Made by a program: the position numbers and the translations under genes
Notes under the pieces: model-generated
Databases searched by the model: none
Told to the model about the DNA's origin: nothing
The model's input: only the letters and a program-made list of their open reading frames with translations
Part shown: positions 3,830-49,363 of the stretch, piece after piece
How positions within the stretch are numbered: position 1 is the stretch's first letter
Layout of the letters: each line of letters starts with the position of its first letter
IMG/VR virus record: IMGVR_UViG_3300009068_000048
Location: 1 to 55,272 of that record
Length of the DNA stretch: 55,272 bases
Reading direction: 5' to 3' (one strand)
Source of the DNA: a virus
Lineage: Duplodnaviria; Caudoviricetes

Positions 3830-4396
3830 ATGCCACTTTCAAAGGGTAAATCTCAAAAAGCCATCAGCGGGAACATCTCCGAAATGATCAATGCTGGCCA
3901 TCCCCGTGACCAAGCTATTGCAGCGGCGCTTTCAACTGCGCGCAAGGCTCGTGCGACAGGTGGAGAAGTAGTTCACACAGGACCGATCCACAGCGCCGTA
4001 GCGGGCCGCACAGACCATCTTCCCATGCATGTGCCGTCAGGTTCATATGTCATCCCCGCAGACATCGTCTCTGCGGCTGGTGAGGGCAATACAATGGCTG
4101 GCTTTAAGATCATGCGCCTGATGTTTTCTGGGAACCCTTATGAGCAGGGGTCACAGCCTTATGGGCAGTCTGACACGCCATACAATGAACCTCTGCCGGG
4201 TAAGGCTGAGGGTGGTGCCGCAACGGTTCCTATTGTTGCTGCTGGTGGTGAGCATGTTATCTCGCCTGAGGAAGTGTTAGGTATTGGGAGTGGTAACCTT
4301 GAGCTTGGCCACCGTGTCCTTGATGAATTTGTAAAACGTATGCGTAGAGAAACGGTGAAGACGCTTCAAAATCTTCCCGGACCTAAAAAGGATTAG
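3830..4396 (+). CDS. hypothetical virion-associated protein with RATGG motif and duplicated G-[S/E]-x-V-I module
   Basis: ATG at 3830 after GAGG. MPLSKGKSQKAISGNISEM...RATGG...GRTDHLPMHVPSGSYVIPADIVS...AAGGEHVISPEEV. Confidence 0.65.
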   Translation: MPLSKGKSQKAISGNISEMINAGHPRDQAIAAALSTARKARATGGEVVHTGPIHSAVAGRTDHLPMHVPSGSYVIPADIVSAAGEGNTMAGFKIMRLMFSGNPYEQGSQPYGQSDTPYNEPLPGKAEGGAATVPIVAAGGEHVISPEEVLGIGSGNLELGHRVLDEFVKRMRRETVKTLQNLPGPKKD

Positions 4397-4398
4397 TT

Positions 4399-4905
4399 AT
4401 GGTAGATAAGACAAACCCGGATGACCTTCATATTCGTATTGGGACACCTGAGGACATTGATGACATTATGGTTGTTGCCATGCAAGCAACTGAAGAGAAT
4501 GGTTTTCTTGACGCAAGTCCAACAAAACTGGTTCAAGAAATTTATCCAGCCCTATGCCAAGATCACGGTATTATTGGCTTGATTGGCCCTAAAGGTGGCC
4601 AAATTGAAGGTATTGTTGTTCTTCGCATTGGTGAGATGTGGTACTCAGACGTGCCTGTTGTTGAAGAAAGGGCTATTTTTATTCACCCCAAATTCCGCAG
4701 CGCAAAAGGCGGACGTGCAAGGCGTTTGTGTGCATTTAGTAAAAAAGTATCTGATACTCTTGGAATTCCTTTAATAATTGGTGTATTGTCCAACTTCAGG
4801 ACTGAAGCTAAGATAAGGATGTATGAAAGAGAGTTTGGGAAACCAAGCGGCGCTTTTTTTCTCTATGGCGCGACAACTGGCAGAAACTCCAGAATGGAAC
4901 ATTAA
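4399..4905 (+). CDS. GNAT-fold acetyltransferase-like protein
   Basis: IRIGTPEDIDDI...GQIEGIVVL...ERAIFIHPKFRS..GGRARRL...MYEREFG matches the GNAT motif A/B layout. Confidence 0.6.
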   Translation: MVDKTNPDDLHIRIGTPEDIDDIMVVAMQATEENGFLDASPTKLVQEIYPALCQDHGIIGLIGPKGGQIEGIVVLRIGEMWYSDVPVVEERAIFIHPKFRSAKGGRARRLCAFSKKVSDTLGIPLIIGVLSNFRTEAKIRMYEREFGKPSGAFFLYGATTGRNSRMEH

Positions 4906-7900
4906 ATGGGCAAGAGATCTAAAAGTACACAGACAATCAGCATCCCACCTGAGGTGCTTGCGCGGTATAATGCCATCAATGCCCGTGCTTCGGCTGCTGC
5001 TGCCAAGCCATTCCAAAGGTATGGCGGGGAGTTTGTTGCGCCACTGACCGAAACCCAGAGATCTGGGATGTCAAACATTAATGCTGCCGCCAATCAGGCG
5101 CAGCCATATTATGCTGATGCCGGTAATGCATACGGCGCTGGCCTTAATCAGGGGCAGGATTATCTTAATTCTGCCACCGGCTATGCGTATCAAGGCGGTC
5201 AGGATGTCAATGCAAGCGACATCAACGGCGAAGCCATTAACAAGTACATGTCGCCATATCTTCAAAACGTTTTGCAGGGCACTGCTGGTTTGCTTAATCA
5301 GCAGAACCAGAATGCCATGTCCGGCCAGACCGGTAATGCTATTCGCCAAGGCGCTTTTGGCGGTGATCGTGGCGGCATTGCCGCTGCAAACCTTCAGCAG
5401 CAACAGCGTCTCGCTGATGCATCGATCTTCAGCAACCTTTTAAATCAGGGTTATAACAATGCTCTGAACACGGCTGTCGGGCAACAGGGTGTTAACCTTG
5501 CCGCGCAACAGGCAAACCGCACGGCGCAGCAACAGACGGCTGACCGCATGGCGGCGCTTGGCCAGCAGGGCTTTAACCAATTCGCAACTACGGGGCAAAA
5601 TGTTGCTGCCCTTGGAACAACTGCCCAAAACTCTGCAATTGCAGGCGGTCAAGCTCAAATGAATGCCGGTCAGGTGGAGCAGGCAACTAATCAGGCTTTA
5701 GACACAGCAATACTTAACCAGTTTAAAGAAGAGCAATCCTATCCATTTCAGACCGCTAAGTTTGAGGCTGACATCGCAGGAAACCTTGGCGCTCTTTCCG
5801 GATCGACAACGACAACAACTAAGCCGGGTGGTTTTGCCTCCGATGCGCGCCTAAAGGAAAACATTCAGAAGGTTGGTAAGACCTATGATGGCCAGCACAT
5901 CTATCGCTATAACTACAAAGGCGACCCAACCACTCAGATTGGTCTAATCGCGCAGGAAGTCGAACACCATCATCCTAACGCTGTCGGTTCCAGCAATAAC
6001 TACCGCACGGTTGATTACGATAAGGCAACAGACAAAGCTGCTGATCGCGGCCATTTCTATGCTGGCGGTTTGGTAAACAGCATGGGTGGCAGCGTAAACC
6101 CCATGCAGGCCGGTCAAGGCTTTGCAGATGGCGGCTTGGCTGGCGTTGATCCTGCATACATGGCTGAGTTGTATAGGCAGCTTCATGCAATTGCCGCAGG
6201 ACGTGGCATTAATGGGATGCAGGGCATTCCTACACAGGATTCTCAAGCTCGTGAATTGATGATCGCGAGAAGCTTGCAAGAAGATCCCTCTAATGAAGCC
6301 GCTGATGCTGCCAATGCCATTGATTCATTTGCCAATCTTGGCAGAACCGTTGGCGTTTTGGATAAGCAAGAGAAAGCTTTCGGCGGCGAGATTGAGGACC
6401 TTGAAGCTAAAAAGCGGGAAGAAGAAACTGGTCTTGCAAGGGCTGCTTTGGAAGCAAGTAAGCCAGAACCTACAGGTCTCGCCGCTCAACCGAATGCTAA
6501 TAACGGCTCAATGGCACCGGTCAAAATCGACGCACCAAAAGCAGAAATGAAATTTGGAGAAAGAACGCCCGCGCAAAAGCTTGCTGTGGCTAGTGGTTCC
6601 GTTGAGCCAACCAACTCTGGTTCTGAATCATTAAAAGACCTTGGCCAAATTGTAAAAATTGCGTCTAGCATTGCGGGCATGATGAACCAAGGCGGTCGCA
6701 TTCACCGCGACATGGGCGGTTCGCTGCCTTATTCCAATGGCGACAGCATTGTTCCGGAATCAAATTCACAACCGCGCCAACTTATGACCGCCCAAGGTGA
6801 TGGCGGCGGTGGCGGTGGTGGAACTGGGAAGGCTATCGGCCAAGTGGCAGGATTGGCTTCCAGCCTTATTCCCGGTGGCGGAATTGTTAAGAAGGGCCTT
6901 GGCGCGATTGGCAAGATCTTCTCTGATGAGCGCATGAAGGAAAACATTCGCCCAATCGGTGAGCTTTTTGATGGCCAGAAGGTTCATAGCTTTAATTATA
7001 AGGGCGACCCGCGCACTCAGATTGGTCTGATCGCGCAAGAGGTCGAGCATCACAGGCCTCATGCTGTCGATCATGATCATGGCATGAAGACCGTTGATTA
7101 TCATGACGCAACGCAGCATGCTATGCGCCGTGGCCATTTTGCTGAAGGCGGAATGCCTGAAGAGGAAATTGTCAGCCCCGGCCTTGTTGCCATCCGCCGC
7201 AAACTTAATCCGCTTGCTGCAAAGATGGCTAATTTCCCAGATCGTCTTGATCAGGAACGCTATTTCAATCTGCATAATTTGCACGATGAAAATCAGGGCC
7301 TTGGTGCCGCTGATGCATCGCCTCCACCCGCTGAAAATATGCTTGAGCGCGGGCCTATGGCACCCAATGAAACCGCGCCTAAGAAAATTATGGCTAAGGC
7401 GCAAGCCACAAAACCGGGTACCCCAAAGATGCCTTCTAAGCTTGCTGAAGCTGGTCTTAATGCGCCTATGGAAGGCGCACCATTGCCAACAGGCATCACT
7501 CAAATTGCGCGCCTTATCCATGCTGGTGAGGGCACGGGCAAGAACCCTTCGTCTTCAGCAAAAGGTCCATATCAATTTATTGACAGCACATTTGTTGGAG
7601 AATTCCGCAAAAACTATCCTGACCGTGCAAAAGGTATGTCCGACCGTGAGATCGTTAACCTAAAGCACAGCCCAGAAGGAGCCTCAATTAGTTCGGAAAT
7701 GGGCCCAAGGTTTATTGCAAACAACGCCAAAATTATTGAGCGTGGTGGACACCGGGCGGATGCCGGTAACGTGTATCTTGCCCACTTCTTAGGCCCAGAT
7801 ACCGCTGTCAAAGTGCTTAACGCCGATCCAAGCGCGCCAATAAGCCGGTATGTTAGCCAAGAGGCAATTAATGCTAACCCACCACTGCGAAAGAACCCAA

Positions 7901-9859: not shown

Positions 9860-11809
9860 ATGGATGAGTATGCGTACAATCCAAACGGCCTCCCGCCCCC
9901 GCCCCTGCCTCCGAAGGGAGATGGGGTTGGAGGACCATCCGCTTTTGATCCAAGCATATCAACCCTTCCGCCTCCGGGGGATGGGTCAAGATTTAATGAG
10001 CCAGCGCCCCAGCAAACGGAGTTGGAAAAGTACAGGGCCGGGATAGACGCCCTACCTTTTGAAAAACGTGCTGCCCTGTTAAGGGAAACAAACCAGCGCG
10101 CAGCAAAAATAAAAGCAGAGCTTGAACAAGAGTATAATCCCAAGCTTGGAGCTTTTGGAACATTCATAAGTAATGCGGCTGACATGGCAACTTTGGGAAC
10201 ACAACCATATTTGGCTGCTTTGATGGCAAAGCCGTTTAGTGACAAATCATATGGCGACCTTGTTACTACCGCAAAGGGCGTACAAAGGCGCAGCAACGTA
10301 GAAAGTCCAACAGCATCTATGCTCGGTACTGGGGCAGGATTTCTTGCTTCATTACCGCGCTCTGTTATTGGCTCATTACCGGGCGCTGCCTCTAGCGCGT
10401 CCAAAATCGGTCAGGGCATCCTCTCTTCTATGGGGCAGGGGGCGGCGTTCGGCCTGACACAAGGCGGAACAGGTCTTGAGGACTTTCTATCGGGAAAAAG
10501 TTACGGCTTGCCCGCACTCCAACAAGCGGGCTTGGGTGCCCTCGTAGGGGGAGCCGCGCATAAGGTCGGTGACGCCATCAGCCCTGCCGCTGTTAAGGAC
10601 GCCGCAAAATATGCGTACAACCTTGGTGTAAAGCTTCCCGCCGGAATCATGAAAGCTGGCCAAGAGGGTTACGAATATTTAGGTGATGCGGCAGCTAAAA
10701 CCGCACTTGGGGTTCGTCAGAGGTTTGACGATCTTGCTGGTGATTTAAATCCAGCATCTACAGCTAAAAATGCAATCGATGACTTTGTGGCATACACAAA
10801 TTATGTGCCTCCCCAATTGTCCGACACCATGAAATTTTTCTCTAAAACGCTTTCAGAGGCTCCAGAAACGGCTATGGATGCCGTCCTTAATGCTGGACCT
10901 AAGGCTCTGCGCGTTATGAAATCCACCCTTAAAGCTAATGGCGCTGACCAAACTTGGGAAAGCCTTCAAAACGGCTTTATGCAGCATCTTGCGGGACCAA
11001 AGGGGCAATTTGGTTTTGGTGATTTTTCAAAACGCTTAGGGGCTATTCCAACAGAAAGCCGTAAAATCCTTATGGATGGCTGGGATCAGGGCCAAAAAAT
11101 GCTTGGCAATGTTAGTGATCTTGCGGAAAGCACCATGCATCGCAGCGGGATAAATCTAATTGACGCCGCGACACAGGGCATTAAAATTGGAGAAAAGAAG
11201 GCTAGTAAAATAGGAAAGCGGATCGGGGACTTGGTAGCGGGATCGGGTATTGGCACTGCGGCTACCTATGCATTATTAAATGATGGCCTAAGCGCCGCAG
11301 CCCTTGCCAAGCTTGGCCTTTTAGCCCCTGTAGTAGCCGGTGGCTATGGAACCAAAAAGGCCGTAGATGCCACAGGCAGGGCCCTCAGTAAGCGCAATGT
11401 CGCCACAAGCCCCACAGTATCCAAGGTGGTTGATAACGCCACCAAGGCTGCAACGCGCTACGTTACATCGCAAGCCGGAAATGCAATCAATGACCTTAAT
11501 GAAACCATTACAAGCTACACGCAGCCCGCAATAAAAAGCGCCTTAAAAACCTTTGGTGATGAAAAGGGTGAAACCGCAAAGTGGTGGTCCAAGAACATGC
11601 CAGCCATACTTGGTGGCAAGGCTAAAGGCGGTCGGATCGCGTACAAAAAGGGTGGCGCGGTTCACTCCAGCGTCGAGCCCTTGGTCCAAGGACTGATGAG
11701 CCGCTACAAGGCCGTCAAGCGGTCGCAGGATAGCGGTACAAAGACATTGCTGCAACAACCTGACCAAGCTATTGTAAGGGCGTTAGATGTGGCTCAGAAG
11801 GCAATTTAA
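9860..11809 (+). CDS. putative internal virion/ejection protein
   Basis: 649 aa, Ala/Gly-rich with hydrophobic segments; follows the large ejection protein; C-terminal KAKGGRIAYKKGG. Confidence 0.6.
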   Translation: MDEYAYNPNGLPPPPLPPKGDGVGGPSAFDPSISTLPPPGDGSRFNEPAPQQTELEKYRAGIDALPFEKRAALLRETNQRAAKIKAELEQEYNPKLGAFGTFISNAADMATLGTQPYLAALMAKPFSDKSYGDLVTTAKGVQRRSNVESPTASMLGTGAGFLASLPRSVIGSLPGAASSASKIGQGILSSMGQGAAFGLTQGGTGLEDFLSGKSYGLPALQQAGLGALVGGAAHKVGDAISPAAVKDAAKYAYNLGVKLPAGIMKAGQEGYEYLGDAAAKTALGVRQRFDDLAGDLNPASTAKNAIDDFVAYTNYVPPQLSDTMKFFSKTLSEAPETAMDAVLNAGPKALRVMKSTLKANGADQTWESLQNGFMQHLAGPKGQFGFGDFSKRLGAIPTESRKILMDGWDQGQKMLGNVSDLAESTMHRSGINLIDAATQGIKIGEKKASKIGKRIGDLVAGSGIGTAATYALLNDGLSAAALAKLGLLAPVVAGGYGTKKAVDATGRALSKRNVATSPTVSKVVDNATKAATRYVTSQAGNAINDLNETITSYTQPAIKSALKTFGDEKGETAKWWSKNMPAILGGKAKGGRIAYKKGGAVHSSVEPLVQGLMSRYKAVKRSQDSGTKTLLQQPDQAIVRALDVAQKAI

Positions 11810-13647: not shown

Positions 13648-13648
13648 C

Positions 13649-35872: not shown

Positions 35873-38800
35873 AATTCAGTCCAGATTCCATAACACGGGC
35901 AATCCGTATTGCTCAGGCTATTGGATCAAAGATTGATCCCGCATTTGGGACCATTCCTATGTTCAAAGAAGGCGAAGGTGCGCCTCTTGAACGCGATACC
36001 AGCAGGCAGACACAAGATGTGCGTATGCCTATGAATTACCCGCAAAAGTTTTCTGTGGGCGGACGTCCGACAAATAAGGTGCCCGACATAATTGATTACG
36101 ATGATCCATTTCGGTTTTTTCGTTTGCAAGACCCTTTTACTTTTGATGTACCTAAACACACATACGCTTCTGGCGGCGAGGTCGATGATCACGTTGTCAA
36201 TAATCCAATGTCTGTCTTCCCCAAGCCCCAGCGTATGTGGGATGAAGACAAACCGGGTGGTGCGTATCTTTCCATGCCGGATAAGGAAGATGTCACCGGC
36301 CACAAAGCCGCGCAAGCTTCCATTGGGATTGGTGAAGGCGGCAAGCCTTATTTCCACGCCTCACGCGACAAAGTCGATGAGACGGGTACACCCGGTAAGG
36401 GCAGTGCGCTGGTCAAGACCAACCTGTTCAAGCAGAAGGCTGGCTGGAAGTGGAAAGATGCGCCTGAAGGCCATGAGGACACCAACACAATTGTTTCTGT
36501 CGAGCATCGTGGCAACCACCATTATGTGCTTGGCGCACATTTCCCCAATGGCGTAGATCTCGCCCGCTACCCTGACGCCTCTTCTGAGCCCCGCCTGCGC
36601 CCCACTACCCGTGGTAACGTCGAACTGGGGCCACAGGTAGGGTCGATCCTTGTCCGTGGCCGTGAGCACCCCGTACACAGCCACGCCATCGTGCGCGAGT
36701 ATGGTGGGCGTGTGGACTACGCAGATGGCGGTGCGCCTGATGATCGTCAAAGTAATTTGGATGCCTTTTTAGAAGGCAACCACCCGCTTGTTCCGAATGT
36801 TGTGTATCACGGCACAGACAGGGACATATCCGAATTTGATACTGAGAAGCCTCGCCGGGTCGATGCGGGTATGGATGCGGGCTACACTGACACAGGCTGG
36901 TATGGGAAAGGCCATTATTTTACACCCCATAAAGAGGGGGCAAGCCATTTTGCGTCTGATTATCGCATGGAGGGTGAGCACGGTCCTAATGTAATGCCCG
37001 TGCATTTGTCTTTAAAAAACCCATTTATTGTAAAAGTTCCTTATTCCTCCAGCGGCGCGACAGACATGGACCGCGCCATGAATGAGGCGGGGTTTGCACA
37101 AAGTTCAAACCAAAGGCTGAATAGCAAGGGGCACGGCGAAAGGCTTCCGTCAGAGCAGACAAAGATGCTTATGGACGCAGGGCATGACGGTGTCATTGTC
37201 ATGCATCAATACGGCATCAAAGATCCTGAAGAAGAACAGGTTGCAAATAATCGTAAAAGCGAAGCCCACAAAAGGCATAACGCTGCTAAAGATGCATATT
37301 ACGAAGCATTTAGCAATCGCGGTAATGAATCTGCGTTTGATGCTGTAAAAGACGAATATATTAAAAGTCGGCATGAACTTCATGACGCAACGGAAGCCTC
37401 ATACGGCGATTACCACCCGCATGAATTTGTTGCTTTTAAACCCCATCAAATAAAATCCGCCATTGGCAATAGCGGTCGGTATGATCTAAGCGAGCCTCAT
37501 ATTGGCAGAGCCGCTGGCGGCGCGCTTGATGATGACGGTCGTGAGCTTAACGACTTTGGCCTTTACAGCCATGCAGCGGAGCAAGCTGGCGGTCTTCAAA
37601 AAACCGATAGCCCTAAGAATTACAAAGATATGCTGATGAAGCTAGGCGTCAAGCCTGCTGAAATAGAACATTCCGGTTACGATCAAGCATTTGCCGACCA
37701 GCCTCAGATCACCCGTGAGCAGGTTGCAGAGCATTTCCAAAACAATATGCCGCAGATGTTTGAAGTGCAGTATGGCGACGATGATTTCCCTACAAACCGC
37801 CATAAAATGTTGGACCGGCATGCCCAAGAATATAGCGATTATGCCATCCAGCAAAGGCAAAATGGCAATTACAATTACTTTGAAGAACCTGAATACGAAG
37901 AAATGATAAACCGGCATCGCGCCGAAAAAGCGGAAGTAGTTTCTAACCCATATGAAGGTGACCCTTTTCATCGTGGTTGGACCATACCCGGTGGCAAGAA
38001 TTACCGCGAAATCCTTCTTAAACATGATAGCGACTATTATGACTTTGGTGGTGTTGGTAACCATTTTGGCGGTTCTCCCAACATTGCTGCCAGCTTGCGG
38101 TTAAAGGACCGTGAGGATGCTGACGGTAACAAAATTTTGCACCTTGAAGAGTTGCAAAGCGATTGGGGCCAAGCGGCCCGCAAACATGGTTTCTACGATG
38201 CTGACCATATTTCTGAGACCCTATCAAGATTTAGGGATGCCAGAGATGAAGTAAACCGTGCCGCAGAAAGCGAAGACCACGACAGGATTGTTGCCGCTTT
38301 AAAGGCTCAAAAAGAAGCTAAAGACGCATACCAAAGCGCCCGCAGCGGCGTTCAGCGCGCCCCATATATTGATAAAACAGACAACTGGGTTGATCTTGGT
38401 CTGAAGCGGGCACTTCTTGAAGCAGCGCAGGGAGGCCATGATAAGCTGTCTTGGACACCCGGCGATGTACAAGCTGATCGCTACAGTTTGAGCAAGCACA
38501 TCAAAGAAATCCATCACCAATTAAATGATGACGGAACATACAACATCATTGCTACAGGCCGGAATAATTCAACCGTACATGACGAGTCAAGCATCCCGGA
38601 AAATAAACTGGCTGGGCTTCTTGGTAAAGAAATGGCTGAAAAAATAATTTCGCGCCAAGGTGATGACAGTGATCTTGATAAAAGGAATTCTAGTAACGAT
38701 TGGCGCAAGCTAAGTGGCCTCAGCCTTGATGTTGGCGGCGAAGGCATGAAGACGTTTTACGATCAAATGCTTCCAAAGCGTTTGTTGAAGCTTGCCCGTA

Positions 38801-41694
38801 TGCACGACCCTGACGCAGAATTTTCCAAGACTGTAATCAGCCACCCAAGAACTTCTGACTATATGTCAAAAGTCTCAGAGCTACCTTCTTTAAACATAAC
38901 GCAAAAGATGCGCGATAGCATCCTGAAGAACGGTTTTGCGGCTCATGCTGATGGCGGCGCAGTGGAAGGATACGATAATGGCGGCGGCGTTGATGATCAC
39001 CCGCTGACTAATCCTGTCTATCACGGCACCACAAGCGACTCAATATCGTCACCGCTGCCAAGCGGTCTTGGCATGGAGATGTTTGAAGCAAACCACCCTT
39101 CGCTTAATTACAATGCGCCAAATGTAACTGCCTTGGCTCTTGGGCCCCATGTTGCGCGTGATCCAAATATCTCTGGTGACATACGTTTTACAACAGGTGA
39201 GCAAGAAGTTAACGGGAAAAGGGTTGGATTTAAGCCAAAAGGCCATGTAGCATTGCTTAACACTTTTCCTGATGAAAAATTCTTTCCCGTAGAACAATCA
39301 TTTGACGATTTTGGCAACCATCAAGGTTCAGCAAGCAGTGATGATCAGGCGGTCCACAATACCGTTTATGCTGATGTTTTTCAAAACAATCCTAAGCTGA
39401 CGCGCAAAGTTTTGAGGGTAATGGGTAAAAGCCCTGAGCATATAGAAAGCTATGTCAGGGGTTTTCAATCCGGAGAGCCGTTTGAAGACCCACTTGGTTC
39501 TAATGGGTTCAAATGGCCAGACGTTAAAACTTTTGTCAATTCCTCCACCATCCCAACAAGCAAAAATCTTATGGGTGAAGTGGTTAAGGACTTCCGTAAA
39601 CGTATGCGGGACAAAGGTTATGTCGGCCTCAGCTACATAAACACCGATCTTGAAGAGACAAAAAACGCAAAAGACAAAAAGTGCTACATTGTTTTTCCGC
39701 AACGCGACAAGGAGACCGGATGGTATCCAATGCGTTTTAGGCAAGGTGCAGCCTATAATCCAGCCGACAAAGGCAAGCCCGGTCTGCACTTGGCAACTGG
39801 CGGCGAAGCTGATGGCATGGAGGGTGAAGAACCTCAGGCTGCTGAAAACCCCAATGGCGGTCTTATGTTCTCGCCTGAAGCTAACGCTGCGCGCCTCCAA
39901 GCAAAGACAAAGCGCGATGCACTGGTCGCTTCTGGTGCCCGCCCTGACACTGGATTGCCAAAGAACCCGCGCACAGTAATCAAAGCCCCTGAAGGCTCAG
40001 ATCTTCCTGACTTTGCAACAGGAAACATCAATTTTGACGATTGGCGCAAGCGTCACGAACAGATCTTGAATGATGACGAAATCCACCATTCATCGCAATG
40101 GTACAAGAATATTTACGGTAATTTTCAGAAATATTACCCTGAGGAAGCTGACGCCAAAAAGATGATGCGCGCTTGGCTTGTGGCCCAGCAAAACGTGTCG
40201 CCTGCCGGTGCCATGAACAATGTTCTCATGCAGCAAGAGCAGATGGATCGCGGTGATCCTGTGGAGCTTTGGCGCGCTGGTGGTATGCCAAACCCGACTG
40301 CCGCTGCGCGCTCAGTTCTTGCCAAAAAAGAAATCAAAGGCGGCGTTGGCCAGAAAATCTCCGATTTTGTCGATTCGGCTGAAGGCAAAAGCACACGTTC
40401 TTGGATGGGTGACCATCCTGATGGTGGCTCACCTTTTGTCGTGGACGTTCATACAGCCCGTGACACAGGTGTTGTTGACCAAGAGTTAATCAACCACCTG
40501 ACGCGCCTTGGCTATGATCCTGAAGCCCTTTCCAAGCTCAAGATCGACATGACCACATCTCCATCTGAGCCAATGTACGAAAACCGCGCTCAGTTTGGTC
40601 GTGACCTTACAGACCATCTCAATCAGATGGGATGGAAGGGGCGCAAAGATTGGACGCCTGATGAAATCCAAGCCATTGGCTGGATGGGAATGACAAAGCT
40701 CACCCGTAACGCTGAGGAGGATTCCGAATCCGGCCTTGGTCGTAACTTGCGCCGTATTTCCTATGAGCTTTCACCGGGTGAAGGATCTCCTTGGGAAGCA
40801 AAATATGGTAAGGGCTTTGAGTCCCTGCCCGACGAAGACCGTTACGACATTACCAAGAAAATGGCTGACAGTGCGATGGAACACGCACAAAAGCTTTCTG
40901 GTATTAATGTTCAAAACCTTGTGCATGGCACCGGGGCTTGGGAAAACTATCAAAACCCAGCCGCTGTCACGCAGTCACTTGCAACGCAGCGCGGTGCCGA
41001 CATTGCCGCCGCTGCCCTTGGCCACATGCTTCAGCAAACTGAGGTCTGGCACAATCGCGTGAAGCCAATGAGCAATGCCCCCAAGGGCTTCGCGCTCGAC
41101 TTTATCGAAAAGGGCTCCAACAACCTTGCTGAACCCGGCGCTTTGCGTGATTTCTGGGGCAAGGTCATGGAAGCAGATCCTCACGGCATCGTTAAGGGCT
41201 ACCAGCCAATAACGCTTCCAACAGGTGAAACAGGTTTACGGGCGCTTTTTGACAAGGGTGGAAAAAAGACCCAAGAACAGATTACCAACCTCTTAGCTGA
41301 CCACGAAAAAGACGAAGATGGAAATGTGGTGCGTAGCAACCCGTTTCGTGCTATGCTTGAATCTCAGCCATTTGATATGGATGTTATGGGCCATGAGGCC
41401 GAAATTACGAAACATAGGAATGATTGGAAGGCGCAGAAAAATGGGGAAGGTTACATTTCACGGTTGGTCGGGCTCCTCGGATACGATCCATCAGCCAAGC
41501 TCAATATTGCTGGGCAGCAACTTGAAAAAGAATTTGGGCAACACCTCGACGAGGCGCACAAAAGGCAAGGCACTTCTTGGCGTGAAGCGCCCGAAAGGTC
41601 TTTAAACCTGCCAAAAGCCAATGGCGGAGCCATTAATAAAGCTATTTTAATTGCAATGCGCGCAAAGAAGCGTTCTCCAGTTGCAATTAAGTAA
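35869..41694 (+). CDS. large polyvalent protein (two ART-like domains, a polyvalent-protein-type domain and an HhH-glycosylase-like domain)
   Basis: 1941 aa. VVYHGT...YFT...VHLSLKNP...GHDGVIV...FKPHQIKS (ART-PolyVal-like); PGGKNYREILL...LEELQSDW; second PVYHGT...GYVGLSY.N; WY...GQKISDF...VVDVH...WTPDEIQAIGW. Confidence 0.75.
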   Translation: MKFSPDSITRAIRIAQAIGSKIDPAFGTIPMFKEGEGAPLERDTSRQTQDVRMPMNYPQKFSVGGRPTNKVPDIIDYDDPFRFFRLQDPFTFDVPKHTYASGGEVDDHVVNNPMSVFPKPQRMWDEDKPGGAYLSMPDKEDVTGHKAAQASIGIGEGGKPYFHASRDKVDETGTPGKGSALVKTNLFKQKAGWKWKDAPEGHEDTNTIVSVEHRGNHHYVLGAHFPNGVDLARYPDASSEPRLRPTTRGNVELGPQVGSILVRGREHPVHSHAIVREYGGRVDYADGGAPDDRQSNLDAFLEGNHPLVPNVVYHGTDRDISEFDTEKPRRVDAGMDAGYTDTGWYGKGHYFTPHKEGASHFASDYRMEGEHGPNVMPVHLSLKNPFIVKVPYSSSGATDMDRAMNEAGFAQSSNQRLNSKGHGERLPSEQTKMLMDAGHDGVIVMHQYGIKDPEEEQVANNRKSEAHKRHNAAKDAYYEAFSNRGNESAFDAVKDEYIKSRHELHDATEASYGDYHPHEFVAFKPHQIKSAIGNSGRYDLSEPHIGRAAGGALDDDGRELNDFGLYSHAAEQAGGLQKTDSPKNYKDMLMKLGVKPAEIEHSGYDQAFADQPQITREQVAEHFQNNMPQMFEVQYGDDDFPTNRHKMLDRHAQEYSDYAIQQRQNGNYNYFEEPEYEEMINRHRAEKAEVVSNPYEGDPFHRGWTIPGGKNYREILLKHDSDYYDFGGVGNHFGGSPNIAASLRLKDREDADGNKILHLEELQSDWGQAARKHGFYDADHISETLSRFRDARDEVNRAAESEDHDRIVAALKAQKEAKDAYQSARSGVQRAPYIDKTDNWVDLGLKRALLEAAQGGHDKLSWTPGDVQADRYSLSKHIKEIHHQLNDDGTYNIIATGRNNSTVHDESSIPENKLAGLLGKEMAEKIISRQGDDSDLDKRNSSNDWRKLSGLSLDVGGEGMKTFYDQMLPKRLLKLARMHDPDAEFSKTVISHPRTSDYMSKVSELPSLNITQKMRDSILKNGFAAHADGGAVEGYDNGGGVDDHPLTNPVYHGTTSDSISSPLPSGLGMEMFEANHPSLNYNAPNVTALALGPHVARDPNISGDIRFTTGEQEVNGKRVGFKPKGHVALLNTFPDEKFFPVEQSFDDFGNHQGSASSDDQAVHNTVYADVFQNNPKLTRKVLRVMGKSPEHIESYVRGFQSGEPFEDPLGSNGFKWPDVKTFVNSSTIPTSKNLMGEVVKDFRKRMRDKGYVGLSYINTDLEETKNAKDKKCYIVFPQRDKETGWYPMRFRQGAAYNPADKGKPGLHLATGGEADGMEGEEPQAAENPNGGLMFSPEANAARLQAKTKRDALVASGARPDTGLPKNPRTVIKAPEGSDLPDFATGNINFDDWRKRHEQILNDDEIHHSSQWYKNIYGNFQKYYPEEADAKKMMRAWLVAQQNVSPAGAMNNVLMQQEQMDRGDPVELWRAGGMPNPTAAARSVLAKKEIKGGVGQKISDFVDSAEGKSTRSWMGDHPDGGSPFVVDVHTARDTGVVDQELINHLTRLGYDPEALSKLKIDMTTSPSEPMYENRAQFGRDLTDHLNQMGWKGRKDWTPDEIQAIGWMGMTKLTRNAEEDSESGLGRNLRRISYELSPGEGSPWEAKYGKGFESLPDEDRYDITKKMADSAMEHAQKLSGINVQNLVHGTGAWENYQNPAAVTQSLATQRGADIAAAALGHMLQQTEVWHNRVKPMSNAPKGFALDFIEKGSNNLAEPGALRDFWGKVMEADPHGIVKGYQPITLPTGETGLRALFDKGGKKTQEQITNLLADHEKDEDGNVVRSNPFRAMLESQPFDMDVMGHEAEITKHRNDWKAQKNGEGYISRLVGLLGYDPSAKLNIAGQQLEKEFGQHLDEAHKRQGTSWREAPERSLNLPKANGGAINKAILIAMRAKKRSPVAIK

Positions 41695-41776: not shown

Positions 41777-43936
41777 ATGTCTGAAGATGGAATGCCCGCA
41801 CTGGCTAAAACTGCCCGCAAAATGATGCGCGATAAATTAAGCCGGATGCTCAAAGACAATAATGGTCCTGTAGATGCATCTGGTTATGTTGTTCCCGATC
41901 CTATGGATGCTGACGTTAAAACAGGTGCGCGTCCAATTTCGCGCCGCCAATTTAAGCGTGGTGGCAAGGTTGTTAACAACGCTGAAGGTAAGGAAACGCG
42001 CAAGCATGCAGGCCGCAAGCCACGCAAGTCGGGTGGAAGCGCCAACGCCACGCCTGATAGCTTAATCAACCGCAATGTCCGCGAAGCAAATGAGTCGCGT
42101 GAAGGCAAAAAGCACACAGGCGCTTTTGCATCTGGCGGCAAAGCAACTGCCGAAAAAGAAATGGGCGGTGGCCTTGCTTATTCCCCGAATGACACCCGTA
42201 TGGCCCGCGCTACTGGCCTCAAGAAAGGTGGAAGCCCTAAAGCCAAGGGTGGATCAACCTATGGCGACTCCACACCACTTCGCCTTGTTAAAACGCTTAC
42301 AGGACCAAAGGGTCACACTGCAAAGGTGTACAAAGATCAGGATTGGGGCGAGTATCGCATCAAGCATTATGATCCAGATGGCAAATATATGCCTAAAGCT
42401 GATTATCACACGGATGATCGCGAAGAAGCCACTGATCATGCACAAAATGTAGTAGACAAAGGCTTTAATGCTGGTGGTCGTGCCAAGAAGACAAATGGCG
42501 GATCAATGGATGATGGCATCTCCACGCGCCCAACCGACAGATACGGTAACCGCGCTACAGACAGAGATCTTGGCATGGTGCGGACTTCTGGCGGCATGCC
42601 AGATAGGGATATTTCTTCGCGCCCAACAGATAGTTCCGGTCGCCGCATAACCAATGAAGAACTTGGCATGGGTTACCCAGCAGAAGCGCGTCCAATGAAG
42701 CGCATGCCTCCCAAAGAGGCAGCTAAAGATGTTATGCGCGGCAAGCCAATGTCTGTGTCGCAAGTTCTTGCCGGTACACGCAATGGTCGCCAAGATGGAG
42801 GCGCTAACCGTGCTGCTAACCGTGCAATGCAGGATGCTAACCGTGCTATGAAAAATATGGAACGACAGCAAGAGTTGCCGAAAAATTATGGTGGCCAACA
42901 AGCAATGCAGCAACAGCCTATGCAACAACCAATGGATCAGCGTTATCAACACAATCAGCAGCAGGGTCAGATGCCTCGCAAGTCTGGCGGTAAAGCTTTT
43001 GAAGGCTCTGCCAAGGACGAATCGCAAGACAAGAAGCTTGCTAAAAAGTATGGCATGTCGATGTCTGCTTGGGAAAAGTCCAAGATGGACAAGAAGCATG
43101 ACACCCAGCAGTCCATGAAGGGCTTGAAGAAGGGCGGTCGCGCTCATCGCGAAACGGGTGGTTTAAACATCCCAACGCAGTCCTCAGCACCTCGTTCACT
43201 TGCGGTTGCTGGTGATCTTCCTGCAAGCACATCCGGAATGGCAAAGATGGGTCAGATTGCTGACACAGCAAGCAAAGCAATTTCTGCTGGTAAAGAGATT
43301 GCAGGTCTGTTTGGCAAAAAGAAAGCAGCGGGCCAAGCAAAGGGCGGTCGCATTGCTCGTAAGGATGGCGGCGGTCTTTATGCCAACATCCACGCCAAGC
43401 AAGAGCGTATCGCGCATGGCTCAAAGGAGCGTATGCGTAAGGTTGGCAGCGAAGGCGCTCCAACAGCGGAAGCATTTAAGCAATCTGCGCGCACAGCCAA
43501 GGCTTATGGTGGCTCATCCCTTGATGGTGAGATCCAAGGCACACGTCCAACAGGCGGTCGTTTAGCCCGCAAGTCCGGTGGTCGCAACAAGGGCAAGACG
43601 AATATCAACATCGTCATCCAAACAGGTAAGGGCGCGCAGGATAACATGGGACCTCCCGGCATGCCGCCTAAGCCTGCTGGCCTTCCTATCCCAATGCCAC
43701 CTATGGGTGATGGTGGTCCTCCACCAATGGGTGGTGCTCCAATGCCAATACCAATGCCACCACCACAGATGCCTATGGTTGGTCCGGGTGCTGGTGGTCC
43801 TCCGCCAATGGGTGGAGCGCCATTGCCTCGCAAGAGTGGTGGTCGCACTTACCGCTCTTACAAGGATATGGATGCAGGCGCTGGGTCAGGCGATGGTCGC
43901 TTGGAGAAAACGGAAATCCAACGTCATAAAAAGTAA
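41777..43936 (+). CDS. basic, low-complexity protein with ~20 xxxGG motifs
   Basis: GGAG RBS before ATG 41777 (ORF track starts at 41765); K/R/G/M-rich; Pro-rich C-terminus. Confidence 0.8.
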
Positions 43937-44187: not shown

Positions 44188-44580
44188 ATGCCGCAGATGG
44201 AAATGGATCATTCCACCGACCCAAAAGCCGATCTCATTGAACGCCTTGGGGACCTTAGCCAAGTAGACCTGTTCCATAATCAGGTCCTTCTCGCAATTTA
44301 TATTCGCCCAGAAAAGACCAAATCGGGCATCATTTTGACCGACAAATACCGCGACGAAGACAAGTATCAGTCAAAAGTCGGTATGGTGGTTAAAATGGGA
44401 GATCTTGCCTTTGATGACCCAACAGATGCTTGGTTTAAGGGCGTCAATGTCAGCATGAATGATTGGGTTGTTTACCGTCCATCTGATGGCTGGAGCATCA
44501 ACATTAATGGTGTTGATTGCCGTGTTCTTGACGATGTGAATGCGCGTATGCGTATCCCGACACCCGATATGGTTTGGTAA
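44188..44580 (+). CDS. GroES-like co-chaperonin
   Basis: NQVLL...EKTKSGIIL mobile loop, VGMVVKMGDLAF, DWVVY, RVLDD. Confidence 0.8.
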   Translation: MPQMEMDHSTDPKADLIERLGDLSQVDLFHNQVLLAIYIRPEKTKSGIILTDKYRDEDKYQSKVGMVVKMGDLAFDDPTDAWFKGVNVSMNDWVVYRPSDGWSININGVDCRVLDDVNARMRIPTPDMVW

Positions 44581-46143: not shown

Positions 46144-46185
46144 GCCTGTTGACATCAAACATAATTAAGTATTAAAAAGCGTTTC

Positions 46186-46271: not shown

Positions 46272-46272
46272 C

Positions 46273-46866: not shown

Positions 46867-46877
46867 GGAGAAGGTAA

Positions 46878-47792: not shown

Positions 47793-47817
47793 TTTAGGAA
47801 TAGAAAGGAGATAACTC

Positions 47818-49059
47818 ATGTCTATTTCTGCTTTTACTGGTCCTCTGGTAAGCTTTGGTCAGTCTCCATATGAGTCGGCTGATAACAACCCAGAAATCGG
47901 TCCGTCTTTGTTTTTTGGTGGCGCGGGGATCTTAGATCCTCGCATCCCATTTTCATACACGCCCGGTCAAGACTTCGGTTCTACTACTGCTGGTTTTCTT
48001 GGCATACAGGACGTGGTGGGTTTAAACATCCTGCCCTATACAAAGGCTGTTGCGGCTATTGCCGCTGCTGCCAACACAACTGCCAGCACAGCAATGACCT
48101 TGGTATCTGCTTCTTCGGCCACAACCGGAATTGCAGTTGCCCAGAGCATTGTCCAATCTAACACTGGTGCCACCGTAACCGGCCTCCTTGGAATTGATTC
48201 CTTCACTCAGGTGACAGGCTACATTTCAAACGGCACAAGCGGCACTGCTGGCAACATCCTGATCGTCTCTGCTGCTTCGGCTGGTCAGTTGACAGTTGGT
48301 ATGGTTATTAGTGGTACAGGCATCGCTGCTAACACAAAGATTATCGGTTACGGCCCAACTGTAAACGCCACAGATGGCGGTTCTGGTGACGGCAATACCG
48401 GTTCATATACTGTTAGCGGTTCTCCTGTTGCTGCTGGTACAAGTAGTTCGCAGCTTACAATCTCCGCCTCTTTGGGCAACTCCACACTGAACGCTATCGC
48501 TGCTGAACGTACTCCGTTTGGCTCCGCTGGCACCATTCAGCTTTGGAACCCAATGGCTTTGACCGCCCGTGCTGTGTCTATCACTACCAGTGTTGCCACT
48601 GTCGGCACCGCCAACGTCTTTACGGTGGTTGGTTACGACATATATGGCTACCCAATGTCTGAGGCGATTACCGTCCCAGCCACTTCGGTTTCCGGCACCA
48701 CTGTCAACGGCAAGAAGGCGTTTAAGTTCATTACCTCTGTAACTCCGTCCGTAACTGATGCGACCACATCGTATTCGGTTGGAACGACTGATATTTTCGG
48801 TCTTCCGCTACGTTCTGATTATTTTGGCAATGCTACGTTTATATATCCCGGAACTGGAGCCACAAACTTGGTGACTTCGGTAACTGGCTATACGGCTGCT
48901 GTAACTACACTGGCTACAACCACAACGGGTGACGTTCGCGGCACCTATGCACTACAGACGGCTGCTTCAACCGGAACCAACCGTTTAATCGTTCGTCAAT
49001 CACCTGCGCTTTACAATATCAGTTCCGTAACGGGACTGTTTGGCGTCACACAGGCATAA
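47818..49059 (+). CDS. virion structural protein (Thr/Ser/Ala-rich)
   Basis: 413 aa after the MCP; GYDIYGYPMSE...GKKAFKFI; carries a divergent copy of the VGMxISG module. Confidence 0.65.
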   Translation: MSISAFTGPLVSFGQSPYESADNNPEIGPSLFFGGAGILDPRIPFSYTPGQDFGSTTAGFLGIQDVVGLNILPYTKAVAAIAAAANTTASTAMTLVSASSATTGIAVAQSIVQSNTGATVTGLLGIDSFTQVTGYISNGTSGTAGNILIVSAASAGQLTVGMVISGTGIAANTKIIGYGPTVNATDGGSGDGNTGSYTVSGSPVAAGTSSSQLTISASLGNSTLNAIAAERTPFGSAGTIQLWNPMALTARAVSITTSVATVGTANVFTVVGYDIYGYPMSEAITVPATSVSGTTVNGKKAFKFITSVTPSVTDATTSYSVGTTDIFGLPLRSDYFGNATFIYPGTGATNLVTSVTGYTAAVTTLATTTTGDVRGTYALQTAASTGTNRLIVRQSPALYNISSVTGLFGVTQA

Positions 49060-49069
49060 GGAGGCCAAT

Positions 49070-49363
49070 ATGAAAGGTCGTAAATACCGCGCCGATGGTG
49101 GCGTAAATTCAGCAGCTAAGGATCTGAGCGATAAGCCAGATCGTCGCAACAATGCAGACCGCATCTTTAATGCGGCTGAAGAGCGCAAAAACGGCGGTCG
49201 CACCAAGCGTAACTATGGTGGGATGGCTGAAGGCGGAGATGCTAAGATGCATGCTGGTCGTAAGGCCCGCAAGTCTGGTGGTTCGTGTGAATCAAGTCCG
49301 TTTTCGTCTGCCCGTGCCGGTACGCCTGCCAAGGGCCGCAAAGCTGACGGAAACATGGAATAG
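49070..49363 (+). CDS. small basic protein with five xxxGG motifs
   Basis: AAGGAGG RBS, ATG 49070; RADGG, RKNGG, RNYGG, MAEGG, RKSGG. Confidence 0.75.
   Translation: MKGRKYRADGGVNSAAKDLSDKPDRRNNADRIFNAAEERKNGGRTKRNYGGMAEGGDAKMHAGRKARKSGGSCESSPFSSARAGTPAKGRKADGNME

Follow-up and report, generated by a model that had tools for sequence, protein, structure and literature searches.

A short di-glycine (GG) motif that recurs in six proteins encoded in the analysed viral DNA (the window, 55,272 nucleotides in total) is real, strongly non-random and under selection at the protein level, and its conservation extends over a large clade. The motif really does mark the joints of modular proteins, which we infer from family names and gene position to be present in the virion and carried inside the head.

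Motif counts and sequence statistics

The motif was counted in a rigid tandem form, GG-R-x-x-[RKY]-x-x-GG, and in a loose form, [FYRKLMH]xxGG, and both were compared with 300 shuffles inside each protein, keeping its composition. Eight tandem sites were present in the six target proteins (shuffle mean 0.01, eight reached in 0/300), and none in the 27 other ORFs of the window (8601 aa). The loose form was observed 53 times in the targets against 18.8 ± 4.3 expected (0/300 shuffles equal that), an excess that is inflated because the target group was picked after the motif had been seen; the tandem excess is too large for this post-hoc choice to matter. In the 27 other ORFs the loose form occurred 11 times against 15.1 expected, and GG pairs in the six targets numbered 90 against 64 ± 7 expected.

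All eight tandem sites listed by the first-pass annotation exist in the proteins to which they were assigned, and its restriction of this form to the target proteins holds within the window. The enrichment over a composition-matched background on which its case depended was obtained for both forms. Its loose motif likewise recurs in all six proteins, with regex and hand counts, respectively, of 2/1 (protein starting at 3830), 9/7 (4906), 3/2 (9860), 13/9 (35869), 21/20 (41777) and 5/5 (49070). The description of the six proteins as unrelated was not quite right, as they have modules in common besides the motif.

As DNA, the tandem sites are eight 30-nt stretches with a mean identity of 60% and varied Gly and Arg codons. 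Since the peptide is kept while the codons drift, selection on the protein is indicated and not DNA homology. Two flavours of the motif were distinguished. Flavour A, roughly [Y/F/H/R/K]-A-x-G-G-(E/x)-V-(D), is found where folded modules of cargo and ejection proteins end. The basic flavour B, roughly h-K-K-G-G-R-[A/T]-x-[K/R]-x-x-G-G, occurs as 1 to 7 repeats in the basic protein and as a single copy in p97 and some cargo proteins. Residues ahead of GG are conserved, and the local net charge around tandem sites ranged from −2 (GGRVDYADGG) to +7.

Table 1. Motif-bearing proteins of the window with their tandem sites, modules and terminal tags.
Feature	Position	Strand	Residues	Remarks
188-aa protein	3830..4396	+		phrog_2423 module (residues 1-43) ending ..ARKARATGG, then C-terminal domain
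Ejection-type protein, 1647 aa	4906..9849	+		Two Peptidase_S74 modules, each then RGHF[YA][AE]GG; one tandem motif
Tandem motif GGRIHRDMGG	6691..6720	+	596-605	Between the two S74 modules; GGRIYRDLGG in L087
Internal or ejection protein, 649 aa	9860..11809	+		Net charge +16; tandem motif near C-terminus; C-terminal helix tag
Tandem motif GGRIAYKKGG	11627..11656	+	590-599	GGRIAYKSGG in L087
C-terminal helix tag AIVRALDVAQKAI	11768..11806	+		PSSM score 11.8; 0.17 expected per shuffled proteome
Polyvalent cargo protein, 1941 aa	35869..41694	+		Start codon overlaps portal stop codon; 13 loose motifs, one tandem motif
N-terminal amphipathic helix tag	35881..35925	+	5-19	AF2 helix; conserved M..DPKAIxxAxMxAK
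First GG, KFSVGG	36058..36063	+	64-65	Ends conserved N-terminal leader
Domain X	36181..36702	+	about 105-278	Conserved, beta-rich; TYASGG before, tandem motif at end
Tandem motif GGRVDYADGG	36703..36732	+	279-288	Between domain X and ART domain
C-terminal tag, PKANGG then helix AINKAILIAMRAKKR	41623..41691	+		PSSM score 14.0; 0.05 expected per shuffled proteome
Putative conserved basic internal protein, 719 aa	41777..43936	+		pI 10.2; net charge +56; 4 tandem, 21 loose motifs
Tandem motif	42473..42502	+	233-242	Immediately behind folded beta/alpha module 165-230
Tandem motif	43133..43162	+	453-462	Immediately behind helical module 412-445
Tandem motif	43343..43372	+	523-532	Immediately ahead of LYANIHAK module
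LYANIHAK module, phrog_16028	43373..43501	+	533-575	Then AKAYGG
Tandem motif	43553..43582	+	593-602	Within family-wide block beginning GTRPxGGRxARKx
p97, small basic protein	49070..49363	+		Net charge +11; five GG motifs incl. N-terminal MKGRKYRADGG
p97 tandem motif GGRTKRNYGG	49193..49222	+	from 42	Regex

Position of the motif at module joints

Ends of Pfam and PHROG domain hits lay within 15 aa of a GG in 9/11 cases versus 30% for random placement. GG occurs where relatives show a gene boundary or an inserted module, and in both the 1941-aa and the 719-aa protein AF2 confidence stops exactly at the tandem motif.

The match of residues 309-537 to ART-PolyVal (PF18760; E 4e-17, 63.7 bits vs cut-off 31.2) identifies the 35869..41694 product as a polyvalent protein; as in polyvalent proteins, several effector domains are found in one polypeptide within the head module. 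Its N-terminal AF2 helix (residues 5-19) is followed by 100 residues with pLDDT <50, and G64 of the leader-closing GG is invariant among 26 aligned cargo N-termini. Domain X matched 343 proteins at E≤1e-5, with a GG at most 6 aa downstream in 116/116 proteins and at most 30 aa upstream in 101/116; its AF2 strands stop at residue 275, and pLDDT is <50 from residue 279. Across the 343 proteins domain X is partnered by at least nine other Pfam families, and homologues combine PF18760, PF02195, PF17338, PF23802, PF18823, PF13508 and others. In relatives, a stop and a start codon are found at the domain X/ART joint, the ART module being a separate ORF in L031, L046 and L067, and the polyvalent region between portal and basic gene ranges from 0 to about 7 kb.

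In the 1647-aa protein, PF13884 scored 71.7 bits (cut-off 22) in 2 stretches, the best at residues 312-360, and PHROG stretches place a second S74 copy at about 662-737; the other PHROG matches were 'DNA ejection protein' and 'virion structural protein'. The S74 sequences ASDARLKEN and FSDERMKEN are present, and the modules presumably cut at their own N-terminal Ser within these, not at GG and not in trans. With two S74 copies, at least this protein is probably processed, and the two clear copies liken it to endosialidases and tail fibres, in which S74 is an intramolecular chaperone that cleaves itself.

Proteins of the 3830 type showed three different fillings at one GG joint. The LYANIHAK module is inserted exactly at the GG in L087, between KASGG and ARATGG, and domain X at the same joint in the proteins of P0061, P0065 and P0038.

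The basic protein

The AF2 model of the basic 719-aa protein (mean pLDDT 53.8) has a beads-on-a-string layout, with small folded modules (confident at 165-230 and 412-445) strung on disordered linkers rich in Gly and Lys/Arg. Each of the four tandem sites falls in a stretch with pLDDT <50. Its LYANIHAK module is a stand-alone small protein in many marine podophages; the homologue in Roseobacter phage CRP-5, gp30, begins immediately behind the position of the tandem motif and has no GG at its end. HTVC027P has about eleven separate small basic proteins at the equivalent place. The basic protein also has GG motifs within its conserved N-terminal block. The gene is retained in L070 and L075, where no cargo gene separates it from the portal gene, so that its motifs have a role of their own. 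Net charges of the basic protein (+56) and p97 (+11) are complementary to those of portal (−38) and scaffold (−21), and DUF6321 has a net charge of +7.

Conservation in relatives

Within 80 related loci, 81 tandem hits were distributed across 35/38 homologues of the basic protein, and the tandem motif was present in 11/93 cargo ORFs and in 5/8 distinct p97 homologues. None was found in about 191,000 residues of portal, Cpn10-like, scaffold, p207, p197, MCP and other ORFs of these loci. The motif is restricted to proteins whose position and family suggest packaging or ejection. The basic-protein family comprised 1939 cluster representatives at E≤1e-3. Among the best 150 of these, non-redundant and <50% identical to each other, 147/150 had the tandem motif, with 414 sites against 0.72 expected, and a CxCxxC knuckle-like motif stood directly before a GG in 31/150. 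Positional conservation in the nearest homologue, to which the first-pass annotation had also tied its reading, was only modestly better for motif GGs (32/48) than for other GGs (22/37).

Terminal helices and tags

A feature beyond the first-pass annotation is that separately encoded cargo proteins have predicted amphipathic helices in common at their N- and C-termini, joined through GG. By regexes and a PSSM that were defined after the data had been seen, the PSSM test set overlapping its training clade, the N-terminal helix was found on 28/72 cargo N-termini vs 0/421 controls, GG plus helix on 29/55 distinct cargo C-termini vs 1/437 controls, and the tag on 67/99 distinct C-termini of database homologues vs 0.012 expected per 35 internal positions. 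A GG in the last 50 aa occurred in 48/55 distinct cargo C-termini vs 73/437 controls. Two proteins of the window, of 1941 and 649 aa, end in the helix tag by PSSM, and several cargo C-termini in relatives end in RGRP.

As separately encoded cargo keeps GG and the C-terminal helix, tagging or anchoring explains the arrangement, and pure cleavage does not. The helices adjoining the motif are better anchor candidates than the motif itself. The earlier interpretation is thus supported in part: the motif is real, conserved and located at joints, and anchoring through the motif itself is a candidate role.

A double-glycine leader with a C39 exporter was considered and rejected; such leaders have 15-30 aa, and the leader here has about 65 aa with the helix 40 residues from GG. 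No C39 peptidase or ABC transporter was matched in the scanned ORFs.

Search for a protease

Apart from the two self-cleaving Peptidase_S74 modules, no protease family was matched in 40 ORFs (Pfam) or 30 ORFs (PHROGs), in agreement with the earlier statement that no prohead protease is recognised in the window. The same sets gave no family match to an adenain/Ulp1-like cysteine protease, in a sequence search that may miss remote or novel proteases. HExxH is absent from the 1941-aa and 1647-aa proteins, and the former had no peptidase Pfam match. The conserved head genes (portal, Cpn10-like, scaffold-like, p207, p197, MCP) revealed no conserved catalytic-looking residue set in alignments judged by eye, and the head gene set looks scaffold-based. 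For domain X, which is present in only 3/42 complete loci, a fold search with a weak model gave no significant match and no protease fold; the weak rows were mostly OB or HIN nucleic-acid binders, none of them significant. The term GG-punctuated polyproteins, used by the first-pass annotation, is fair for punctuation at module boundaries; the cleavage at GG that it implied is not supported by the protease matches.

Discussion

We read the motif, with a probability of roughly 35%, as the connector or tether of a cargo-loading system that also has a basic multivalent form, and not primarily as a cutting site. The GG motif would then be a protein-level short linear motif marking the joints of virion-internal, packaged and probably ejected modular proteins, carried by uncultured podophage-like viruses that form a large clade. 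As a connector that is flexible and yet recognised, it would tie interchangeable effector modules to conserved packaging elements, namely the amphipathic helices at the N- and C-termini, with the pattern a-I-x-(+)-A-L-x-h-A-(+), as well as domain X in some proteins. The basic tandem form would act as a multivalent sticker holding the internal proteins to an acidic partner in the head, which may be scaffold or portal surfaces, or DNA. Packaging, docking by the helices, the docking target and the uncut state of the joints are elements that we infer. The connector is preferred because the motif, in excess far above chance, is confined to one protein set, selected at the protein level and positioned at joints; because every cargo protein encoded on its own has a tag to itself; and because charges are complementary, the basic protein is present even where no cargo gene separates its gene from the portal gene, and no protease was recognised. 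Several points count against it. Docking would need no more than one tag on each polypeptide and by itself leaves the recurrence of the motif at nearly every joint unexplained, and the local charges (−2 to +7) make a purely electrostatic sticker unfit for cargo-type sites such as GGRVDYADGG. A sequence-specific motif at nearly every joint between unrelated modules is, moreover, the classic signature of polyprotein cleavage sites, and the invariant GG closing the conserved N-terminal leader also looks like the end of a removable targeting peptide.

These last points lead to a live, if less probable, alternative, in which a host protease or an unrecognised one of the phage cuts the GG joints after assembly, freeing small basic proteins and separate effectors and removing the terminal helices after targeting. 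The motif stands at almost every joint of unrelated modules, invariantly behind domain X (116/116) and at the leader end, and residues ahead of GG show the conservation expected of P-side residues. In relatives, such joints correspond to a free protein end (CRP-5 gp30) or to a stop and a start codon (L031, L046 and L067), the separate small basic proteins of HTVC027P fit the proposed products, and one motif-bearing protein already has two self-cleaving S74 modules. Precedents exist in the T4 CTS with gp21 (PMC7697877) and in AVP, which acts on basic precursors bound to DNA (PMC4246237). However, S74 was the only protease family matched in the 40 (Pfam) and 30 (PHROGs) ORFs, the polyvalent protein has no HExxH, the conserved head genes display no catalytic-looking set by eye, and domain X, the sole candidate flanked by its own sites, is present in only 3/42 complete loci and yielded no protease fold from its weak model. 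The rigid 6-residue tandem spacing and the GG inside the conserved N-terminal block would be unusual for cleavage sites, and GG plus helix persists on separately encoded cargo proteins. An extended form of cleavage, which we consider unlikely, is a head-internal joint code: interchangeable cassettes would all be linked through one and the same di-glycine site, the precursors would be loaded by means of their terminal helices, and a protease would then cut the joints, freeing small basic DNA-bound proteins and effectors. The reader would be a host enzyme or a phage protein of no known family, acting in a capsid whose gene set looks protease-free. If true, bacterial viruses would have a counterpart to the core maturation of adenovirus.

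An improbable explanation for the basic tandem motif is a DNA or RNA hook of the AT-hook or RGG-box kind, which would compact the packaged genome or neutralise its charge and keep escort enzymes on the DNA so that they enter with it. The distribution is AT-hook-like, in that a small, disordered, basic protein has many Gly/Arg-rich copies and large enzymes have one each; the carriers are basic (the basic protein, p97 and DUF6321), CxCxxC directly precedes GG in 31/150 representatives, RGRP, the AT-hook core, stands at several cargo C-termini of relatives, and the non-significant weak fold rows of domain X are mostly OB/HIN. Yet the GG motifs of the window itself lack the GRP core, the cargo-type tandem sites are neutral or acidic (−2 in GGRVDYADGG) and not basic, and DNA binding gives no reason for the exact position at joints. 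More improbable still is a structurally convenient hinge (strand, tight turn, strand) inherited with shuffled cassettes, offering short homology for swapping and having no dedicated reader. Glycine-rich motifs of T-even adhesins serve module swapping, and shuffling is extensive here, as seen in the partners of domain X, the three fillings of the 3830-type joint and the variable length of the polyvalent region. Against a hinge stands the conservation of the peptide while codons drift, indicating selection on the protein; a passive hinge would accept Ser, Asn or Pro for Gly and would keep neither the flanks nor the 6-residue spacing.

The connector reading can be set beside several known systems. 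The proteins resemble T4 internal proteins (PMC7697877), unrelated and basic proteins that go in with the DNA and have a conserved leader/cargo site and a common short terminal peptide, which here too would send them into the prohead; a short terminal peptide common to otherwise unrelated internal proteins was found here as well, for motifs defined post hoc. The T4 CTS, a 10-aa N-terminal peptide, is removed by the head maturation protease (PMC7697877), unlike the roughly 15-aa amphipathic helix predicted here at either end, with its GG joint and with no prohead protease recognised. AVP cleaves DNA-bound precursors, and a fluorogenic AVP substrate contains Met-Arg-Gly-Gly (PMC4246237). The present proteins share with AVP and ASFV pS273R substrates a GG in a short consensus, with several sites per basic, probably DNA-associated internal precursor; a recurrent Gly-Gly consensus at joints was found, the modules being putative mature products. 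In ASFV, pS273R carries out di-glycine polyprotein processing, and AVP prefers an aliphatic P4. Here, an aromatic or basic residue plus Ala precedes GG, the searches detected no cysteine protease, clan CE-like or otherwise, and the fixed-spacing tandem form has no counterpart in AVP/ASFV processing.

Polyvalent proteins have been predicted to be processed into domains by embedded zincin-like metallopeptidases (Iyer, Burroughs, Anand, de Souza, Aravind 2017; PMC5512222). The 1941-aa protein agrees with that class in having ART-PolyVal, in adjoining the portal gene and in the many effector domains that are combined among its relatives, but it departs from the prediction in having no embedded zincin-like metallopeptidase (no HExxH). 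In the main text of PMC5512222 the words 'glycine', 'GG motif' and 'linker' are absent, and neither a joint motif nor terminal helices are described; no description of the GG motif was found in the searchable literature.

Short-motif cargo loading is known from microcompartment encapsulation peptides and encapsulin cargo-loading peptides, and CsoS2 is a disordered multivalent scaffold. Terminal amphipathic helices with a flexible linker on unrelated cargo (AF2 helix 5-19; C-terminal helices after GG) and a disordered, basic, repetitive motif protein were likewise found here. The connector would resemble these systems, and the T4 CTS, in function; the compartment here is a DNA-filled phage head, and there is no sequence relationship to the microcompartment and encapsulin systems.

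How injected proteins are chosen and loaded is understood for very few tailed phages; among these proteins are DNA-binding proteins and enzymes that act against host defences or degrade the wall. The GG joint, the terminal helices and the basic multivalent protein together form a signature that can be read from sequence, common to a family of at least 1939 sequence clusters in public metagenomes and to hundreds of polyvalent proteins. If the joints are cut, there would be an undiscovered protease to find. Should the tags direct packaging, one could predict from sequence which proteins uncultured phages inject, and foreign proteins might be loaded into capsids.

The tandem GG motif

A protein-level motif under selection, GG-R-x-x-[RKY]-x-x-GG, marks the joints of an interchangeable set of modules in proteins that resemble head-internal cargo. 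The first-pass annotation had drawn attention to a GG motif in six target proteins (ORFs starting at 3830, 4906, 9860, 35869, 41777 and 49070), with the tandem form in five of them, and every one of the eight tandem sites was found at the position named there. With 300 composition-preserving shuffles within each protein as background, 0.01 tandem sites were expected in the six targets, and the motif was confined to them in the window, none occurring in the 27 other ORFs. The looser form [FYRKLMH]xxGG was found 53 times in the targets (18.8 expected) and 11 times in the other ORFs (15.1 expected), an excess that is inflated because the target group was picked after the motif had been seen. The positions themselves, which should recur in homologues, did so in part: in the nearest homologues 32 of the 48 motif GGs were kept versus 22 of the 37 other GGs, and site-by-site conservation is therefore only modestly above background. 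A DNA repeat was ruled out as the origin of the motif, with a mean pairwise nucleotide identity of 0.60 among the eight sites and varying Gly and Arg codons.

The portal has a separate conserved GG-x6-GG (..PPGGGALVKTGGMP..), kept in 63 of 70 portal homologues, which has neither the Arg nor the basic pattern, and bears no relation to the tandem motif.

Gene content and distribution of the motif in relatives

The IMG/VR record of 55,272 bp is the whole virus record, with a completeness estimate of 94%, and from its gene content it is a podophage-like virus. Further genes code for SU10-adaptor-like proteins, tail spikes and a glycoside hydrolase 19-type lysin. The portal is only 27–35% identical to those of the nearest cultured phages (Pelagibacter HTVC027P and HTVC023P, Caulobacter RW, Roseobacter CRP-901/902, and Planktothrix phages) and 62% identical to that of the uncultured record MW202675.1; at least 598 related stretches were found in IMG/VR.

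Features of the virus record and their positions
Feature	Position	Assignment
Structural protein, Thr/Gly/Ser-rich repeat domain	1145-3481	
3830 protein, 188 aa	3830-4396	
S74-containing protein	4906-9849	PHROG 'DNA ejection protein', 'virion structural protein'
649-aa protein	9860-11809	
Structural protein, Thr/Gly/Ser-rich repeat domain	11821-13032	
Large terminase	31508-33145	
Portal	33554-35872	
Polyvalent protein, 1941 aa	35869-41694	ART-PolyVal
Domain X module	36181-36702	
Basic protein, 719 aa	41777-43936	
Cpn10-like protein	44188-44580	
Acidic scaffold-like protein	44590-45459	
p207	45468-46091	
Major capsid protein, 304 aa	46878-47792	phrog_371
Structural protein, Thr/Gly/Ser-rich repeat domain	47818-49059	
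p97	49070-49363	
DUF6321 protein	49430-49699	PF19846
Tail spike	52255-54498	
Tail spike, running off the record end	54528-55271	

The Cpn10/GroES-like gene occupied a fixed slot between the basic and scaffold-like genes in every related locus reaching that far, as also in HTVC027P and Caulobacter phage RW. The first two of the three structural proteins with the common Thr/Gly/Ser-rich repeat domain were 44% identical across 204 aa (BLAST, E 1.7e-32), and the adjacent tail spikes had their first ~134 residues in common (47% identity, E 1.5e-32); low-stringency all-against-all BLAST among the window proteins was too noisy for use. The 413-aa protein after the major capsid protein (MCP) had almost no relatives among cultured phages.

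In 80 related loci, sampled as portal ± 10 kb with ORFs of each category counted as distinct ORFs, 111 strict tandem sites were identified, all in coding-strand ORFs and none in opposite-strand ORFs. Of the 38 basic-protein homologues, 35 had the motif (81 sites), as did 11 of 93 cargo ORFs, i.e. the variable genes between the portal and basic genes, and five of eight p97 homologues; the remaining ORFs of these loci (portal, Cpn10-like, scaffold-like, p207, p197, MCP, DUF6321 and others; ~191,000 residues together) had no tandem site. A basic-protein profile retrieved 1939 cluster representatives at E≤1e-3 among 1.84 billion proteins, and 147 of the best 150 of these, mutually <50% identical, held the strict motif (414 sites, 0.72 expected). 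The spacing between consecutive GGs peaked sharply at six residues, and the family consensus was G-G-[R/L/M]-K-[K/T/S]-G-G-R-[A/T]-x-[K/R]-x-x-G-G. Among cultured phages, tblastn with the conserved C-terminal motif block gave a single weak match. A knuckle-like H..CxCxxC motif directly preceded the tandem GG in 31 of the 150 representatives, examples being found in loci L006 (12862-14319), L068 (6364-7689) and L074 (7283-9196).

GG at the joints of modules

The proposal of the first-pass annotation that GG punctuates modules was borne out, as nine of 11 Pfam/PHROG domain ends were within 15 residues of a GG (30% on random placement), with the ends of the self-cleaving Peptidase_S74 (S74) modules set by eye at 380 and 741; using the Pfam end of 360, the first GG distance is 27. 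The LYANIHAK module of the basic protein starts straight after a tandem site and closes in AKAYGG, and the free LYANIHAK-type protein of phage CRP-5 has a C-terminal end without GG. In the 3830-protein homologue of locus L087 this module sits exactly between ..KASGG and ..ARATGG, and domain X fills that joint in three database proteins. In several relatives the ART module is separated from domain X-type ORFs by a stop and a start codon, which take the place of the tandem motif. The polyvalent region of MW202675.1 consists of three ORFs, the first of which finishes in ..YHARGGVAK, and HTVC027P has ~11 separate small basic ORFs from the portal to the Cpn10-like gene, with a tandem-like site in only one. 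Queries of nine motif or tag pieces against Pfam at E≤10 returned chance rows alone.

Domain X, a beta-rich module at residues ~105–278 of the polyvalent protein, closed by the tandem site GGRVDYADGG, is 63–93% identical across 343 polyvalent-type proteins of 371–2000 aa, in which it is combined with many other Pfam domains. A GG followed within six residues downstream in 116/116 and preceded within 30 residues upstream in 101/116 proteins, these being the ones with both sequence anchors among 120 listed of the 343. In the AF2 model the strands stop at residue 275, and confidence falls where the tandem site begins (its first G is residue 279). Invariant positions include Ser, Lys, His and Glu, and the peptide S-x-FPKPQRM, in a low-confidence modelled stretch, is invariant too. 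No Pfam family matched domain X, and the weak model of residues 1–310 (mean pLDDT 52.8) gave a best row of E 0.27 in Foldseek against PDB and a best Z of 2.4 (rmsd 3.0, 63 residues aligned) in a wide VIA-align search; neither counts as a match, and neither bears on which fold domain X has. Domain X was rejected as a universal processing enzyme or general anchor because only three of 42 loci with portal and basic genes have it, and because the basic protein still holds tandem motifs in two loci without any cargo gene.

Shared terminal helices

GG connects the cargo with a conserved amphipathic helix found at either terminus. These ends, common to the variable ORFs between the portal and basic genes, are an additional shared element that was absent from the original finding. 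The N-terminal pattern is M..DPKAI(R/K)KA(I/L)M(T/V)AK.., followed by a Pro-rich stretch and an invariant GG, and the C-terminal pattern is ..xGG-x-V-(V)-(D/N/H)-(R/H/K)-A-L-x-(L/I/V)-(T/A).., often with a basic tail after it, sometimes ..RGRP. Among distinct termini, and with the helix patterns written after the data had been seen, the N-terminal helix was found in 28/72 cargo ORFs versus 0/421 controls and the C-terminal GG plus helix in 29/55 versus 1/437; a GG within the last 50 residues was present in 48/55 versus 73/437.

A PSSM of the C-terminal tag, built from 38 cargo C-termini, scored 14.0 at the C-terminus of the polyvalent protein and 11.8 at that of the 649-aa protein (0.05 and 0.17 expected per shuffled proteome, respectively), its top match in the window being a false positive in a tail spike. 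Scores of at least 8 were obtained for 67 of 99 distinct C-termini of database proteins chosen by domain X alone, which partly overlap the training clade (0.012 expected per 35 internal positions). Where the polyvalent region is split, every gene retains one or more of these GG-linked helices.

Past the helix, many cargo C-termini in the related loci and in the domain X proteins P0034–P0056 continue with ..RPM(V/F)ALADLFQRQLRGRP.. and finish in RGRP, an AT-hook-like core. The conserved p207, between the scaffold-like gene and the head-module gene p197, is unassigned to a family and has an acidic N-terminal part, a stretch (..EDPR..AA.RAAE..) like the helix tag, and a conserved block GW.YEWKR...GWE.VP..RHP.

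Carrier proteins and search for a protease

The basic protein has a pI of 10.2 and a net charge of +56, with +16 for the 649-aa protein and +11 for p97; almost every other structural protein is acidic, as are the portal (−38) and the scaffold-like protein (−21). For the basic protein, AF2 modelling from a 32-sequence alignment (mean pLDDT 53.8) gave a few small confident modules, at residues 165–230 (pLDDT ~95), 412–445 and the terminal helices, set in long linkers of low confidence. Such low-confidence stretches contain all four tandem sites, two of which (233 and 453) come directly after a folded module. Homologues of two modules occur as free-standing proteins in other phages (phrog_7884 and phrog_16028). 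PDB sequence searches gave no matches at E≤10 for the basic protein and p97, and KdpC chance rows alone, with E above 1, for the 188-aa protein. ESM Atlas searches returned viral clusters without families; rows for a crAss cargo domain (3830-protein C-domain, 0.85) and for phage cement proteins (p197, 0.81–0.83) are leads only.

The ATG of the polyvalent protein overlaps the portal stop codon. The two S74 modules of the 4906-9849 protein stand in tandem (residues 312–380 and 673–741), internally and not at a fibre C-terminus, and each is followed by RGHF[YA][AE]GG; beyond them is a lytic-transglycosylase-like stretch, ..GPYQFIDSTF.., judged by eye. The DUF6321 protein is basic and stands alone, the domain being C-terminal in the far longer profiles of several PHROG families; a homologue was recognised by eye among the small basic ORFs of HTVC027P, and no mention of DUF6321 was found in full-text literature.

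In agreement with the first reading of the window, no prohead protease was recognised: Pfam (40 ORFs) and PHROGs (30 ORFs) gave no protease except S74, and the conserved head-gene alignments, judged by eye, had no obvious catalytic set. HExxH is absent from the polyvalent protein, which matters because zincin-like peptidases have been predicted to process polyvalent proteins (Iyer et al. 2017, PMC5512222); the text of that paper on polyvalent proteins is without mention of glycine, a GG motif or linkers. When the portal was co-folded, without controls, with the first 70 aa of the polyvalent protein (its N-terminal leader), ipSAE was 0.00 and 0.01 (mark 0.32), a result that counts neither way.

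Interpretation

We tentatively rank first the reading in which GG is an uncut connector with a docking role, at a probability of roughly 0.35, because no protease is in evidence, separate cargos keep GG and helix, and the motif of the basic protein is independent of cargo. Cutting at GG is a less probable, still serious reading, consistent with the recurrence of a sequence-specific motif at almost all joints, as in cleavage sites, with the invariant GG that ends the conserved leader, and with the gene boundaries of relatives, which fall at these same positions. Precedents are described for T4 (PMC7697877) and adenovirus (PMC4246237), but in the scanned ORFs S74 is the only protease in sight.

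It is doubtful that the motif is a nucleic-acid hook, which would suit its basic copies, the CxCxxC knuckles of the 31/150 relatives and the RGRP tails but fits poorly with the acidic cargo-type copies. Least probable of the four is a passive hinge passed on along with shuffled cassettes: module shuffling would be accounted for, but not conservation at the peptide level. Two further, purely speculative readings are mimicry of the GroES mobile loop by GG and the hydrophobic residues after it, and 2A-like ribosome skipping at a ..NP.. downstream of GG. The four ranked readings are not mutually exclusive; a tag that loads cargo and is then removed at GG would combine the docking connector and cleavage.

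No description of the motif was found in full-text literature on phage Gly-Gly processing, DUF6321 or capsid-targeting sequences. Systems in which phage internal proteins are targeted and possibly processed are already a known kind; what is new is the GG/helix signature and its breadth.
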